Positions 15,060-60,288 are shown, counted from the first letter of the stretch. The stretch is DNA of 64,000 nt from Nitrosopumilus sp. (GCA_965205215.1 OZ242041.1:1600001-1664000); one strand, 5' to 3'. The notes: a model not told the origin generated them from the letters alone. Numbers and translations: made by a program.

Positions 15060-16181
15060 ATGGGCATTCCCGAAAAGATAAAGGCCATACAGGATGAGAT
15101 GGCAAGGACGCAGATCAACAAGGCCACGGAGCACCACATAGGCCTGTTAAAGGCCAAGATTGCAAAGCTAAAGCGAGAGCAGGAAGAGAACACGATAAAA
15201 AAGTCGGGCGCAAAGTCGGACGGCTTTGACGTCAGGCGTACGGGAGACGCGACCGTGGTGTTCATAGGACTTCCAAGCGTCGGGAAATCCACGCTGCTAA
15301 ACAAGCTGACGGATGCAAAGTCAACCGTCGGCGCGTTCCAGTTTACCACGCTGACGGTTGTGCCGGGCATGATGGAGTACAGGGGCGCAAGGATCCAAGT
15401 GCTCGATCTTCCCGGAATCATAAAGGGGGCATCGTCCGGCAAGGGCCTTGGGAAGAGAATACTCTCAGTCGCAAGGACCGCGGACCTCGTGCTGCTCATC
15501 CTTGACGTCTTCCAGCCGCACCACGAGGACGTCCTGATAAACGAGCTTGGAAACATAGGCATACGGCTCAACCAGCTCCCACCAAACATAACAATAGAGA
15601 AAGCGTCGATGGGCGGCATCGCGGTTGCGCAGCAGGTCAAGCTCACCAAGATCACCGAGGGGCACCTCAAGGACATACTGCACCTGTACGGGGTGGTTAG
15701 CGCTAGGGTTGTTACACGCGAGGACGTGACGTCCGAGCAGCTAGCGGACCACATGGCAGGCAACGTGTCGTACTCCAAGGCAATTACGGTGCTCAACAAG
15801 ATTGACCTGGTGGACTCGGAGTTCCTGCAGGACCTGCGCCAGAGGAGGGCAAGCGAGTCGAGGACGCCGGCCGTCGAGGTTTCTGCAAACGCCGAGGTCA
15901 ACATAGACGCCCTCAAGCAGCAGATATACGAGAAACTGAGGTTCATCAGAATATACATGCGCCCGAAGGGCGGGCCCACGGACTACGACGAACCGCTTAT
16001 CGCGAGGGAGGGGGACAGCGTCGAGGACGTCTGCAACAAGATCCACCGCAGGATGCGCAGGGAATTCAGGTACGGGATGATCTGGGGAAAGAGTGTCAAG
16101 TTCGGGGGCCAGAGGGTCGGACTCGGGCACATACTGCAGGACGAAGACGTACTGACGATAATAAAGGCAAGGGGCGCATAG
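15060..16181 (+). CDS. DRG/OBG-family GTPase with TGS domain
   Basis: GLPSVGKS, FTTL, DLPG, NKID, HILQDED. Confidence 0.95.
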   Translation: MGIPEKIKAIQDEMARTQINKATEHHIGLLKAKIAKLKREQEENTIKKSGAKSDGFDVRRTGDATVVFIGLPSVGKSTLLNKLTDAKSTVGAFQFTTLTVVPGMMEYRGARIQVLDLPGIIKGASSGKGLGKRILSVARTADLVLLILDVFQPHHEDVLINELGNIGIRLNQLPPNITIEKASMGGIAVAQQVKLTKITEGHLKDILHLYGVVSARVVTREDVTSEQLADHMAGNVSYSKAITVLNKIDLVDSEFLQDLRQRRASESRTPAVEVSANAEVNIDALKQQIYEKLRFIRIYMRPKGGPTDYDEPLIAREGDSVEDVCNKIHRRMRREFRYGMIWGKSVKFGGQRVGLGHILQDEDVLTIIKARGA

Positions 16182-16709
16182 CAAATTGTGTGCGCGCCGC
16201 CGCACCGCCGCGCGCGCAAGCAGAACCACACAACGCCGGCCGGCCCTGAAATACAGGCGAATCATGCGCCGCGCGCACATGAAAGGGATGAGTCGGATCC
16301 GCGGGTGAAAATCCACCGCGGTTGCAAAAAACCCAAAAACGTCCCAAAACAGCAGTTTTTGCAACAAAATAATTTCATAGAAAGGATCGCACATAACCGC
16401 GCATACAGTATGCCATGCAATGTCATTGCACAATGGCGCGCTGCAAGTCACGCACAGGCTAAGATCGCAAAAATGCGAAGGCGCAAAAAAGCGCGGTGGC
16501 AGAATGGCACAGAGTCATGCGGGCGGGCGCACCTCCAAAAATACGCCCGCTTATTCGTAGAATTGGCACAAATATGGCCAGGGGCGGATATTACAGGGGA
16601 CGCGTGACACGGTACAGGCCCGGTCCGCACCGCGCGTGCAAGAAACACGATCGTATTTGGATAAAGCCGTTGTATTTTGGAAAATACCCATCCGCGTGCA
16701 TGGGTTTTG

Positions 16710-16761
16710 CGATCGTAAAAAACGTAGTTTCTACAAAAAACAGCTCTATTTTTTACGATCG
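16710..16761. promoter_or_regulatory. 13-bp perfect inverted repeat upstream of an AT-rich promoter
   Basis: CGATCGTAAAAAA (16710-16722) / TTTTTTACGATCG (16749-16761), 26-bp spacer. Confidence 0.6.
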
Positions 16762-16819
16762 ATTTGTATAATTTTTTTAATATTAACCATTGAAAAATAG
16801 CCATAATTTCGATAAAAGC

Positions 16820-17452
16820 ATGGCAAGACCAAAAGCTACAAAGCGCAAGCCGGGCAGACCAGCCAAGAAGGCGACCGTTGCAAAGCGCAAGCCGGGCAGA
16901 CCAGCCAAGAAGGCTACTGCTGCAAAGAAGGCGACCGTTGCAAAGCGCAAGCCGGGCAGACCAGCCAAGAAGGCTACTGCTGCAAAGAAGGCGACCGTTG
17001 CAAAGCGCAAGCCGGGCAGACCAGCCAAGAAGGCTACTGCTGCAAAGAAGGCGACCGTTGCAAAGCGCAAGCCGGGCAGACCAGCCAAGAAGGCTACTGC
17101 TGCAAAGAAGGCGACCGTTGCAAAGCGCAAGCCGGGCAGACCAGCCAAGAAGGCTACTGCTGCAAAGAAGGCGACCGTTGCAAAGCGCAAGCCGGGCAGA
17201 CCAGCCAAGAAGGCTACTGCTGCAAAGAAGGCGACCGTTGCAAAGCGCAAGCCGGGCAGACCAGCCAAGAAGGCTACTGCTGCAAAGAAGGCGACCGTTG
17301 CAAAGCGCAAGCCGGGCAGACCAGCCAAGAAGGCTACTGCTGCAAAGAAGGCGACCGTTGCAAAGCGCAAGCCGGGCAGACCAGCCAAGAAGGCGACCGT
17401 TGCAAAGCGCAAGCCGGGCAGACCACCAGCAAAGGCCAAGAGCAAGAAGTAA
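16820..17452 (+). CDS. Highly basic H1/HMGA-like repeat protein with 11 AT-hook-like KRKPGRP motifs
   Basis: ATG after strongly AT-rich promoter, downstream terminator, K/A/R/P/T-dominated composition. Confidence 0.85.
   Translation: MARPKATKRKPGRPAKKATVAKRKPGRPAKKATAAKKATVAKRKPGRPAKKATAAKKATVAKRKPGRPAKKATAAKKATVAKRKPGRPAKKATAAKKATVAKRKPGRPAKKATAAKKATVAKRKPGRPAKKATAAKKATVAKRKPGRPAKKATAAKKATVAKRKPGRPAKKATAAKKATVAKRKPGRPAKKATVAKRKPGRPPAKAKSKK
16865..17394. repeat. Perfect 60-bp tandem repeat, about 8.8 copies
   Basis: Consecutive 60-nt lines are identical; encodes KKATVAKRKPGRPAKKATAA. Confidence 0.97.
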
Positions 17453-17477: not shown

Positions 17478-17508
17478 CGTCGCTTTGGCGACGTGTTTTT
17501 CTTATTTT
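17478..17508 (+). terminator. Hairpin plus T-tract terminator
   Basis: CGTCGC-TTTG-GCGACG followed by TGTTTTTCTTATTTT. Confidence 0.6.
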
Positions 17509-17817: not shown

Positions 17818-19770
17818 CTAGTATAGATAGCTCATGAGCTTGATCTGCTCCTCGGTGTTTATGACTCCCTTGTTGGTGAGAATCTCCAGCAGATCCTTGA
17901 ATAGCGCCTTTTGTTCCGCAGACATTCCACCCGACGGTCCCTTCTCCCCGGGTAGCCCCGGTGGCCCGCGCGAGCCCTGCGGTCCCATGGGGCCCTGGGG
18001 GCCTTGGGGGCCCTGCTCACCGTCAGGGCCTGGCTGTCCCTTCGGACCGCGCTCGCCCTGTAGTCCCTGAATGCCCTGGGGGCCTTGGGGGCCCTTGTCT
18101 CCGGGCGGTCCTGGCGGGCCTCGCTCACCTTGCGAGCCCTGTGGGCCTTGGGGGCCCTTCTCCCCTGTAGGCCCCTGAGTACCGGTCTCTCCCTTGTCGC
18201 CCTGCGGGCCTACTGGGCCCTTGTCACCCTTGTCGCCCTGCGGTCCAGGCACTCCGGTAAGCCCCTTTGCACCGGCAGGGCCCTGTGGTCCCTGGGGGCC
18301 CTTTTCTCCTACAGGCCCCTGAGTACCGGTCTCTCCCTTGTCGCCCTGCGGGCCTACTGGGCCCTTGTCACCCTTGTCGCCCTGCGGTCCAGGCACTCCG
18401 GTAAGCCCCTTTGCACCGGCAGGGCCCTGTGGTCCCTGGGGGCCCTTGTCGCCGGTAGAGCCGGCCTGTCCTGGCGGGCCTGGCTCTCCGATCGGGCCCG
18501 GGGGTCCCTGAGAGCCCTTTTCACCCGGGATGCCTACTGGACCAGTCGCTCCTTTTTCACCCGGGGGGCCTATGGTTCCTGTGATGCCCTTGTCTCCGGG
18601 CGGGCCAGAGGGGCCCTTCTCGCCCTTGTCTCCGACAGAACCGCGCGGTCCCACGGGGCCCTTGTCTCCGGGCGGGCCCGTAATGCCGCGCTCTCCCTTG
18701 TCTCCGACGGGGCCCTTGAGGCCCACGGGGCCCTTGTCTCCGGGCGGGCCCGTAATGCCCTTGTCGCCCTTGTCTCCGGGCGGGCCCGTAATGCCCTTGT
18801 CGCCCTTGTCGCCCTTGTCGCCAGCTACGCCCTTGTCGCCCATAACGCCCCTTTCGCCCGTGGGGCCCTTGTCGCCCTTGTCGCCCTGCGGGCCTGCGGG
18901 GCCCTTGTCGCCCTTGGATCCCTTATCACCGGTAATGCCCTTGTCGCCGACGGGTCCCTTGTCCCCCGCAGGGCCCTTGTCGCCGACGGGTCCCTTGTCC
19001 CCCGCAGGGCCCTTGTCGCCGACGGGTCCCTTGTCCCCCGCAGGGCCCGTGGGCCCAGTGGCGCCGCGTCTTCCAACAGGACCAGGCATGCCGGCCGGAC
19101 CCTGAGGCCCCGAAGGACCCATGCGCCCGGCAGACGCAGCTGCGGCAGAATCAGGGATAGTGGAAGGGCGAGTGGTGCCGGCAGTCGCGCGGGTTGGAGA
19201 GTCCCAAGACGGCGGGGCGGGCTGAGGTGGCTGCGGGGGGCGGACGGGGCGCGGCCCGGATTGCGCGCCGGAAGGATCCCTTTCCTGTTTTCCAAGGGTG
19301 CCTTGCAAGTCTGCGGAGGAGTCAGCGGCCCCCCTCTGGGCGCCGTCTGCCGTTGTTCTTGTCGACCCCGGGGCAGGAGGGGGCGGAACCGGCCTCTTTT
19401 TGGCGGGAGTGCCAGCTGCCGCCTTCTTCTTCTGTGTGTCTTTGTCCGCCTTTGCAGCTTTCTGGGAAGACTCCAGCGGCACGTCAAATACGGAGTTTGC
19501 CGAGGAGAATATGTCAGATACTACAATCCACACCGTCGTGGAATTCTTGAGTGAGTCCGGAATCGGGTTTCCCTCCGAACCCAGCGTCTCTGAAAACTTG
19601 CCGTCCTCTACGCGCAGGTGAAAATGGTCGCTCCACAGGCTGTCAAACTTGTTGCGCCTGACGTCCTCTTCGGAAGGCTTTGATTTTGATATGGATATCT
19701 TGACCTCGTACACGCCAGGCTTCACAAACGGAGCCTTGCCGCTAACCTTGAGGCCGGGCTTTAGTGACAC
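17818..19770 (-). CDS. Collagen-like protein (about 134 Gly-X-Y triplets)
   Basis: Gly-X-Y run spanning 17923-19128, globular N-domain, short helical C-domain. Confidence 0.92.
18169..18447. repeat. 135-bp direct repeat (period 144) within the collagen gene
   Basis: 18169-18303 matches 18313-18447. Confidence 0.8.
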
Positions 19771-46894: not shown

Positions 46895-48188
46895 TTTCCA
46901 TTGTGGAAACGTTGCGATGCTTGCCGTCGTTTGATATGAGCGAGTCAGAAGATATCCTCACGTCGCTTATCGTATACCCCACAGTGTCCATTCGCTTGAT
47001 AATCATCTGCGAGACGTCCACTGCGTTGGTGATCTTCTTGCCCCTTGCCTTTATTGTCACCGTGTCCTGGTTTGCAAGCTGAGTAAGTGTGGCAGAGACA
47101 TATGTCATTATGGGCTTGCTGCCCACAAATATGACATCCCTCATTGAAGAGGATTCGGAGCTAGCAGCGGTCTCAGGCGATGGTTCTGGCGCGGTGGCGG
47201 TCTCAGGTGATGGTTCTGGCGATGGTTCAGGCGCGGGCTCTGGCGATGGTTCAGGCGCGGGCTCTGGCGATGGTTCAGGCGCGGGCTCTGGCGATGGTTC
47301 AGGCGCGGGCTCTGGCGATGGTTCAGGCGCGGGCTCTGGCGATGGTTCAGGCGCGGGCTCTGGCGATGGTTCAGGCGCGGGCTCTGGCGATGGTTCAGGC
47401 GCGGGCTCTGGCGATGGTTCAGGCGCGGGCTCTGGCGATGGTTCAGGCGCGGGCTCTGGCGATGGTTCAGGCGCGGGCTCTGGCGATGGTTCAGGCGCGG
47501 GCTCTGGCGATGGTTCAGGCGCGGGCTCTGGCGATGGTTCAGGCGCGGGCTCTGGCGATGGTTCAGGCGCGGGCTCTGGCGATGGTTCAGGCGCGGGCTC
47601 TGGCGATGGTTCAGGCGCGGGCTCTGGCGATGGTTCAGGCGCGGTGGCGGTCTCAGGCGATGGTTCAGGCGATGGTTCAGGCGATGGTTCTGGCGCGGTG
47701 GCGGTCTCAGGCGATGGTTCTGGCGCGGGCTCTGGCGCGGTGGCGGTCTCAGGCGATGGTTCTGGCGCGGTGGCGGTCTCAGGCGATGGTTCTGGCGATG
47801 GTTCTGGCGATGGTTCTGGCGCGGTGGCGGTCTCAGGCGATGGTTCTGGCGCGGGCTCTGGCGATGGTTCTGGCGCGGTGGCGGTCTCAGGCGATGGTTC
47901 TGGCGCGGGCTCTGGCGATGGTTCTGGCGCGGTGGCGGTCTCAGGCGCGGGTTCAGGCGATGGTTCTGGCGCGGTGGCGGTCTCAGTGTCATCGCGGTAC
48001 ACGGATGAAGCGTCGTCAGGGGTACAAGCACACCCAGAGTCGTGTCCGGCATGTGGCACATCTTCTGCAGACCCAATTCCAGAAGGTTCGTCAGGTGTGC
48101 TCGTATTGGTAGATATCTCAGACTGTGTTTTAGAGGTAAATTCGGACAATATCTCTTCGGCATCGGTTGACTTCTTCTCGCCGTACAT
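46875..48188 (-). CDS. Alba-domain protein with a long acidic Pro/Glu-rich N-terminal extension
   Basis: C-terminal [12 protein letters not shown]...IKARG..I..AVDV...RNVSTMEI Alba signature. Confidence 0.9.
47167..47985. repeat. Tandem repeat region; core of 17.8 perfect 24-bp units (47218-47644) plus mixed 12/15-bp modules
   Basis: (GGCGATGGTTCAGGCGCGGGCTCT)n, encoding PEPAPEPS on the minus strand. Confidence 0.95.
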
Positions 48189-60007: not shown

Positions 60008-60288
60008 GTGTGAGCTGAAGCGCGAACGCTGCCACGGCAGAGGAAACTCCTCCCTCCATACAGGGGTGCGATCCGGAGATGGATAGTCGGAGACGGCTGG
60101 CAACGGAGCAGAAAATGATCCAACATGGGGCACTGTGATGGCAGACCCTGAGGTTCCCATGAACGGAATGAAAGAAGCCGACCCGCACGGAGAAAGGCCA
60201 AACAGAGCTGCAGGACCTGTACCAGGCTCAGGTGGGCCGCAAAGCGAAATGTCGCGAGAACAGAAGGAGGGTTACTCTCAGCACACAC
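60008..60288 (+). ncRNA. rnpB: Archaeal RNase P RNA
   Basis: CR-I GAGGAAACTCC (60040-60050), CR-V AACAGAAGGAGGGTTA (60259-60274), CAGAAA, complementary P1 ends. Confidence 0.9.

Follow-up and report, generated by a model that had tools for sequence, protein, structure and literature searches.

We analyzed a 64,000-nt stretch of DNA (hereafter the window; GCA_965205215.1, OZ242041.1:1600001-1664000) from the genome of Nitrosopumilus sp., a sponge-associated ammonia-oxidizing archaeon of the family Nitrosopumilaceae. A preliminary description, made from the sequence alone, had drawn attention to an open reading frame (ORF) composed almost entirely of AT-hook-like motifs, and had placed it in an archaeon with a GC-rich genome. 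Both attributions hold: an archaeal RNase P RNA lies in the same window, and the genome, a single contig of 2,098,239 bp, has a guanine-plus-cytosine (GC) content of 60.3%. The ORF begins with an ATG at 16820 and ends with a stop codon at 17450-17452. It lies downstream of a gene for a DRG/Obg-type GTPase (hereafter DRG), between a conserved AT-rich block and a terminator-like hairpin, and faces a convergent gene for a collagen-like protein (Table 1).

Table 1. Features of the repeat gene and of its surroundings in the window.
Feature	Position	Strand	Basis
Coding sequence, 210-aa polycation, 11 KRKPGRP cores, AKKAT(AAKKAT)VA linkers	16820..17452	+	ORF translation, orthologues
Tandem array, 60-bp unit, 9.1 copies, 8 identical	16865..17407	+	Tandem Repeats Finder, repeat search, unit listing
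Conserved AT-rich upstream block (predicted promoter and short 5' leader)	16744..16819	+	Alignment, nhmmer profile
Terminator-like element, hairpin CGTCGC-TTTG-GCGACG then T-rich run	17478..17508	+	Scan, alignment
DRG/Obg-type GTPase gene (MMR_HSR1 and TGS domains), upstream synteny anchor	15060..16181	+	Pfam
650-aa collagen-like protein gene, convergent downstream neighbor	17818..19770	-	Pfam Collagen, E 8e-67
Archaeal RNase P RNA	60010-60286	+	173 bits

The product consists of 63 Lys, 58 Ala, 24 Pro, 23 Arg, 19 Thr, 11 Gly, 10 Val, one Met and one Ser. As the preliminary description had stated, it has neither acidic nor aromatic residues (0 Asp/Glu, 0 Phe/Trp/Tyr). Its net charge is about +86, Lys and Arg together account for 41% of the residues, and no hydrophobic stretch occurs anywhere, the N-terminus (MARPKATKRK) included. 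Given this composition, which also excludes large hydrophobic residues, the chain can form no hydrophobic core and must associate with polyanions. The translation contains the 11 copies of the heptapeptide KRKPGRP that had been counted before, joined by 10 linkers, of which eight are AKKATAAKKATVA and two are AKKATVA. Unit lengths along the chain are 7, 14, 20 (eight times), 14 and 15 residues. Ten of the cores extend to the decapeptide KRKPGRPAKK and one to KRKPGRPPAK.

At the DNA level, Tandem Repeats Finder reported a period of 60 bp with 99% matches. The 60-bp units had been called nucleotide-perfect, which is true of eight out of nine; the ninth deviates at three positions. Adaptation to high GC is visible in synonymous usage only, with an AAG:AAA ratio of 62:1. 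The array is unique in its genome, where a six-frame scan found no other open frame with more than three GRP cores. Four other Lys/Ala-rich open frames occur outside the window (G000:C1, near 2094979 (+), 1782095 (+), 1422281 (+) and 207046 (-)); they carry repeats such as AAKKGAAKAAAKKGAAK, and none has a GRP array.

We used the DRG gene, found in 58 of the 61 genomes of the GTDB genus that were searched, as an anchor and examined the DNA downstream of it at 50 loci of the genus (30 at first, the window's own locus included, and 20 further ones; the loci of G051, G058, G072, G053, G041, G015 and G065, the split locus of G005 and second copies in G045 and G070 were left out). Most genomes of the genus have a GC content of about 32-36%, and names on identical DRG proteins include Nitrosopumilus and Ca. 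Nitrosomarinus. Orthologues were recognized by an MA-x-K/R start, at least 33% Lys plus Arg and almost no acidic residues, which also served as the search filter, and on this basis a basic repeat ORF occupies the slot at 38 of the 50 loci. Of these ORFs, 27 are present in full, with lengths of 30-210 aa and a median of 110, and a contig end truncates the other 11. At four further loci the ORF is cut, gapped, has Val at residue 2, or is fused to another frame (L006, L033, L029, L010). The window gene lies in the same slot, has the same type of upstream block and hairpin, and encodes a product of the same type, i.e., it is a DRG-linked polycation repeat gene.

The orthologues range from 24 to 250 aa in length. 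Those of the genus read MATKRKAAPKRKAAKRKTAAKKAAPKRK... and are made of AAPKRK-type repeats without Gly. The repeat unit changes from species to species (11, 12, 23 or 27 residues), which fits repeated amplification and homogenization of different units. Two alleles are short, with 46 aa at L039 (G052) and 30 aa at L012 (G063). Repeat-like DNA carries on past the stop codon of L039, and this suggests a frameshift or nonsense change in the array, or an assembly error.

Across the family, the DRG gene was present in 44 of 46 genomes from 24 genera, and we inspected one locus each for 20 other genera, leaving aside g28, g68 and g76. In 12 of the 20, a promoter of the same type precedes a basic ORF, with ORF types that we designate K/A/P, R/T, S/A/P/R and R/A/V. 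Within genus g29, the gene is present in G203 (L094) and is not at the slot in G275. Judged by sequence, the family-wide constants are charge, the near-absence of acidic residues, position and signals, and the repeat sequence drifts. The window gene belongs to this family-wide set, in which charge is conserved and the hook is not. Basic repeats were also seen elsewhere in the family. Genome G048 has an 85-aa ORF of KRKPAAKKAAA repeats and a coiled-coil protein with about 10 KRKPAAKKAAA units at its end (L061 and L063), and G022 has a SWIB-like protein with a KKKVAPKKK N-terminal tail (L058). These repeats look like a reusable module in the family.

Because the array is open in all six frames in the window, the reading frame had to be established from the relatives. 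For 12 orthologue pairs, we counted mismatches by codon position in the basic frame: 74 fall on the first, 48 on the second and 129, out of a total of 251, on the third. In 41 complete orthologues, which were chosen for being open in the basic frame, four of the other frames contain 36, 234, 43 and 270 stop codons. The remaining antisense frame, which has its wobble positions in common with the basic frame, has one stop across the 41 orthologues. An in-frame ATG upstream of the array exists for it at only one of the 41 loci, and its open state is compositional. The basic frame starts with an ATG and MA-x-K/R at all 38 genus loci that have the ORF, and in the window and at L096 it is the sole ATG-initiated ORF of at least 50 aa over the array.

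One could still argue that the repeat is non-coding, or coding in another frame or strand, and is open in all six frames by chance. Besides the open frames themselves, such an argument can point to protein collections, from which 17 basic-frame products, nine alternative-frame ORFs and an antisense frame of 260 aa are all absent (see below). We find it hardly credible, given the numbers of stop codons in the other frames, the single antisense ATG, the enrichment of variation at third positions, the sole long ATG ORF in the window and at L096, and a promoter and terminator that are oriented for the + strand. On this comparative evidence, the array is a real + strand archaeal gene, read in the basic frame and separately signaled.

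That the gene has its own promoter and terminator had been proposed from the start, and is supported by conservation (38 loci upstream and 26 downstream), not by experiment. The approximately 80 nt before the ATG have >90% column conservation in the 38 aligned loci, with a local GC fraction of about 0.3-0.6. The block includes the motif TTAACCATTGAAAAA at 16783-16797, and its core motif TTAACCAYTGAAAAA has a single occurrence in the genome. An nhmmer profile of the block gave a sole match in this genome, at 16744-16822 (E 9e-9). The profile matched 45 of the 50 genus loci, 38 of which had been used to build it, leaving seven independent detections, and also matched 12 of the 20 loci from other genera. 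Compared with the copies in low-GC relatives, that in the window has diverged further. Downstream of the gene, the hairpin spans 17478-17493 from arm to arm, with the T-run after it, and a homologous element is conserved in 26 aligned loci (the window and 25 relatives). Across these loci its 10 pairs are nearly invariant, which amounts to conservation and provides no evidence of covariation.

An order-wide search with the upstream motif allowing one mismatch was as noisy as a reversed control and was discarded. We fetched 30 loci with exact matches, and only L094 has the gene; two matches in G167 are noise. Near the upstream side of the promoter block there is a perfect 13-nt inverted repeat, CGATCGTAAAAAA (16710-16722) and TTTTTTACGATCG (16749-16761), with 26 nt between the arms, which may be an operator or the end of an upstream transcript. 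A palindrome, ACGATCGT, is located at 16643-16658, and in relatives a single ACGATC is retained some 100 nt before the ATG.

At 638 bp, the stretch that separates DRG from the repeat gene (16182-16819) is an unusually long spacer. The corresponding DNA of low-GC relatives holds a 58-aa CxxC...CxxC zinc-ribbon ORF (MDQE.EHRWCKFC...), which tblastn did not find in the window's genome (best E 0.57). Given that the synteny with DRG is conserved family-wide, the product might be a polycation that associates with RNA or ribosomes and is functionally linked to the adjacent ribosome-binding GTPase. We consider this improbable. The repeat gene is set 250-640 bp apart from DRG, with a conserved promoter and terminator of its own, and a separate small zinc-ribbon ORF intervenes in the low-GC relatives. 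Moreover, gene order is broadly conserved in the family, so the adjacency to DRG carries little weight.

The convergent neighbor encodes a protein whose eight collagen stretches lie between N- and C-terminal parts of non-collagen type. Many relatives also have collagen-like frames past the basic-repeat gene, and some high-GC relatives have them directly after DRG. Lys/Ala-rich blocks resemble elastin cross-linking domains. This resemblance and the conserved adjacency would allow for an extracellular or envelope matrix component that acts with the collagen-like neighbor, its Lys/Ala blocks serving as elastin-like cross-linking sites. Such a role is very unlikely for a protein with no hydrophobic signal-like segment at its N-terminus, encoded by a gene that is convergent with that of the collagen-like protein, each having its own signals. 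A search of the genome for lysyl oxidase (PF01186) gave no match, and was a weak one, as control genomes gave none either.

GRP occurs in none of 37 genus orthologues. Gly makes up 0.1% of their residues compared with 5.2% of the window protein, where all of it is inside GRP. The preliminary description had called for a survey of orthologues for gain of GRP, and the result is that the gain is lineage-specific. We rejected an origin of GRP in GC drift: the share of Lys has not changed (30% in the window protein and 31% in the orthologues), Arg is lower than in the orthologues (11% vs. 16.5%), and the changes from A/P to P/G/R are GC-neutral.

A scan of about 185,000 species genomes with a degenerate KRKPGRPAKK query yielded 12 loci, of which four are thaumarchaeal. 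One is on a 2.185-Mb contig of a metagenome-assembled genome (MAG) of Nitrosopumilus sp. (L117); it encodes 250 aa with 12 GRP cores and one PDRP unit, and is identical to the window at 510 of 540 upstream and 341 of 400 downstream positions. A Thaumarchaeota MAG (L121; upstream flank identity 507/540) has at least four hooks and then a scaffold gap, and a contig of G062 (L124; 465/536) is cut after two hooks. The last, a short-read contig (L125; 433/537), encodes 41 aa with two hooks, and its array has perhaps collapsed. GRP cores are restricted to a small high-GC clade, consisting of the window's genome and these four MAGs. In the 21 nt that code for KRKPGRP, the five genomes show synonymous variation only (GGC/GGT, AGA/AGG, CCA/CCG), bar one unit with a G>D change. 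Variation of this kind is modest evidence that the motif is under constraint at the amino-acid level.

The window has 11 hooks and L117 has 13, and the flanks of the two loci are 94% (upstream) and 85% (downstream) identical. The 60-nt unit of L117 is identical to that of the window and is present in eight exact copies, in another arrangement (L3-S2-L7, vs. S-L8-S in the window, where L is a long and S a short unit). Thus, the hook number changed after the two genomes diverged. This result and the spread of orthologue lengths agree with the variable repeat number that had been predicted. Identical 60-bp units would allow the number of hooks to alter by slippage or unequal recombination.

Many MAG contigs stop 350-500 bp past DRG, inside or just before the repeat gene (L008, L009, L011, L016, L017, L019, L021, L026, L028-L030, L032, L034, L051, L052, L098), and N gaps fall within the array at L033 and L121. 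Contig ends inside the gene are what an assembly-breaking repeat leaves behind; assemblies break here systematically, and the gene is hence under-represented in draft genomes. None of the assembled contigs placed on the locus spans the array. The depth of the repeat unitig over that of the flanks was about 8x (X1), 9x (X3), 8x (X7) and 5x (X4), and these ratios, which reflect summed contig depth and not copy number, give a weak hint that copy number varies between samples.

Taken as a whole, we think it somewhat more probable than not that the window gene encodes a Nitrosopumilaceae-wide, disordered DNA-binding polycation, in which the GRP cores confer a preference for the AT-rich minor groove. 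H1 tails neutralize the charge of the DNA backbone, and the AKKA-type linkers may do so in the same way. The polycation would bind DNA, neutralize its charge and compact or bridge the nucleoid like H1 tails, chlamydial Hc2 and protamine-like proteins. In the high-GC sponge-associated clade, the ancestral AAPKRK-type unit was replaced by the KRKPGRPAKK unit. In a 2024 review, GRP with flanking K/R residues, and frequently P as well, is what makes an AT-hook (PMC11354804); KRKPGRPAKK fits this description. For the VGR element of Ler, Arg alone is described as entering the groove (PMC4466236). By analogy, and by the HMGA standard (RGRP), KRKPGRP is best regarded as half a hook, with a single groove-inserting Arg.

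The hooks recur every 14-20 residues, and we estimate that an extended 13-residue linker would cover about one turn of B-DNA. Adjacent hooks could occupy consecutive A/T tracts along a single duplex, or engage two duplexes. Eleven cores would provide multivalent, avidity-driven binding to clustered A/T tracts, which are scarce and punctate at 60% GC. As candidate targets, 0.56% of all 50-nt segments of the genome have a GC content of ≤30%, forming 1077 islands, and 149 of 4193 segments of 2 kb have a GC fraction of <0.50.

A possibility that we rate lower, and still take seriously, is a generic polyanion coat that binds DNA and/or RNA by charge alone, as protamine or an H1 tail would, with GRP as a neutral variant of the amplified unit that brings no preference for AT or for the minor groove. 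Only charge and low complexity are kept across the family while the sequence of the unit has been replaced repeatedly, all hooks come from one unit, and the Pfam AT_hook family is unmatched, as would suit such a coat. It fits less well with the retention of GRP through three synonymous site changes in five genomes, with one nonsynonymous unit, or with the exclusion of Gly from the rest of the family. Further, unrelated bacteria (L119, L122) have KRKPGRPAKK as well, in tandem arrays of DNA-binding type.

Several points weigh against the DNA-binding polycation with AT preference that we favor. We infer its expression, DNA binding, AT preference and cellular role from the gene and its relatives. 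The 11 cores all descend from one amplified unit and hence do not represent 11 independent gains, and the orthologues manage without GRP, so GRP is dispensable for the function of the family. Such a gene is missing from the slot in four other high-GC relatives (G002, G018, G047, G022), and two queries did not find a basic-repeat gene elsewhere in these genomes. Thus, the hook does not follow from high GC alone. Extended AT-hooks are reported to bind RNA, and the ligand could therefore be RNA. The AlphaFold single-sequence model is of low confidence (mean predicted local distance difference test score, 60.5) and neither shows nor excludes disorder; we treated beta-like stacking in this model as a repeat artifact.

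The profiles of known hooks also count on this side. The window protein did not match Pfam AT_hook (PF02178) at E≤10, a test in which HMMER filters may penalize low complexity. Among the controls, P0003, which has RGRP hooks, matched at 3.6e-11, and P0005, which has KRKPGRP hooks, was also unmatched; the AT_hook profile evidently favors RGRP. The missing match and the failure of P0005 mean that the core is a non-canonical PGRP, with a single Arg to insert.

No other Pfam family matched the window protein at E≤0.1 or E≤10, and there was no match in NCBIfam. We looked up 17 exact basic-frame products from 17 loci in a collection of 15 billion proteins and found none, although products with alternative start codons could escape an exact look-up. 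Nine alternative-frame ATG ORFs were absent from the same collection, which does contain the neighboring DRG proteins of the window, L020 and L025, under NCBI accessions. Current pipelines apparently do not call the gene. A word-seeded search with the window protein returned six weak low-complexity matches and no thaumarchaeal relative, and one with orthologue L020 returned 26 matches, all of them basic tails on unrelated bacterial domains. The antisense 260-aa frame had no match in the word-seeded protein search. A metagenome scan with the window protein gave 593 pattern matches, none of them confirmed, and an exact search of metagenomes for a 30-nt unit gave zero; neither is evidence of absence. 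The gene is undescribed in the literature that we found on Nitrosopumilus chromatin, archaeal AT-hooks and sponge symbiont collagen, a search that covered the articles outside their supplementary tables. In a complete tryptic digest, the longest peptide of low-GC orthologues L020 and L096 has four residues, and of the window protein, KPGRPAK (7 aa, 10 copies) and KPGRPPAK are all that remains. Even with an annotation in place, the protein would escape shotgun proteomics.

Synthetic multi-AT-hook (MATH) proteins have a comparable multi-hook design. Among natural proteins, Drosophila D1, whose 10 hooks are described as bundling AT-rich DNA through multivalency (PMC5957525), similarly has about ten AT-hooks in one largely unstructured chain, for which multivalent bundling is proposed. 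D1 is a eukaryotic protein with RGRP-type hooks and a C-terminal acidic domain, whereas the window protein is archaeal and has PGRP cores, no acidic residues and perfectly regular Lys/Ala linkers; we do not claim homology. HMGA1 and HMGA2 are also small, basic and disordered, with GRP flanked by K/R and P, and minor-groove binding is expected of them (PMC11354804). They differ in having three hooks, a PRGRP core and an acidic tail, compared with 11 hooks and no Asp/Glu in the window protein. The earlier label "HMGA/H1-like" survives in part: the acid-free architecture of hooks and Lys/Ala linkers stands, but the Pfam AT_hook and HC2 matches, the RGRP core and the acidic tail are all missing.

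The C-terminal tail of H1 and Chlamydia Hc2/HctB resemble the window protein in their Lys/Ala/Pro tandem repeats, absence of a fold and strain-variable repeat number. Bordetella BpH1 and Pseudomonas AlgP are bacterial H1-like repeat proteins. The nearest Atlas clusters are bacterial "histone family" and HC2-bearing ones (scores 0.85-0.86), which are leads only. The likeness to Hc2 is compositional, as the window protein does not match the Pfam family HC2 (PF07382) at E≤10. Unlike H1/Hc2-type proteins, which are without GRP cores, it is archaeal and has its own conserved promoter and terminator.

For the silencers H-NS and Lsr2, an x-G-R element is expected in the AT-rich minor groove, and the RGR type is described as favored in high-GC genomes (PMC4466236). 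Some actinobacterial Lsr2-like proteins (P0002, P0004, P0006) have RPGRPAKKATAKATVAK linkers that are close to the window repeat. H-NS, Lsr2, MvaT and Rok combine one hook in a folded domain with an oligomerization domain, whereas the window protein has repeats only. The suggestion that it acts as a xenogeneic silencer is reduced to an analogy, since it has neither an oligomerization domain nor a folded DNA-binding domain. Two Bacteroidota proteins (L119 and L122) come close in sequence, with 7 and 10 tandem GRP cores, AKKAA linkers in one of them, and an identical KRKPGRPAKK. These uncharacterized proteins differ in being bacterial, and their arrays are appended to coiled-coil or C-terminal globular parts.

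The window's genome has one histone-fold match and three Alba matches, and Cren7 was looked for and not found in it. One Alba-domain match, at 46947-47135 (-) (E 1e-15), is inside a 443-aa open frame. Histone is reported at <0.06% of the N. maritimus proteome (PMC7613761), which leaves room for another abundant DNA-binding protein. We raise, as a tentative idea with the odds against it, that the DRG-linked polycation is the missing major chromatin protein of marine ammonia-oxidizing archaea, retooled in this clade to an AT-reader with 11-13 hooks. If so, the GC content of the lineage would have drifted from about 34% to 60%, and the hooks would concentrate on the few AT-rich islands (promoters, foreign DNA). 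The protein would then be the archaeal equivalent of D1/HMGA or of xenogeneic silencers, lacking any domain, and repeat slippage could tune hook dosage. It would have been overlooked because gene callers appear not to report the gene and because tryptic peptides have no more than four residues in low-GC orthologues.

Nitrosopumilaceae are among the most abundant archaea, and their known chromatin protein (histone) is described as scarce in the N. maritimus proteome (PMC7613761). A conserved and strongly signaled polycation gene is an obvious candidate for DNA packaging in this family, and one that is invisible to annotation and tryptic proteomics. In practical terms, the gene breaks short-read assemblies. 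The GRP clade is a natural experiment in which one gene occurs with and without AT-hook cores, at 60% and 34% GC, respectively, and lets one ask whether the hook turns a generic DNA coat into an AT-selective reader.

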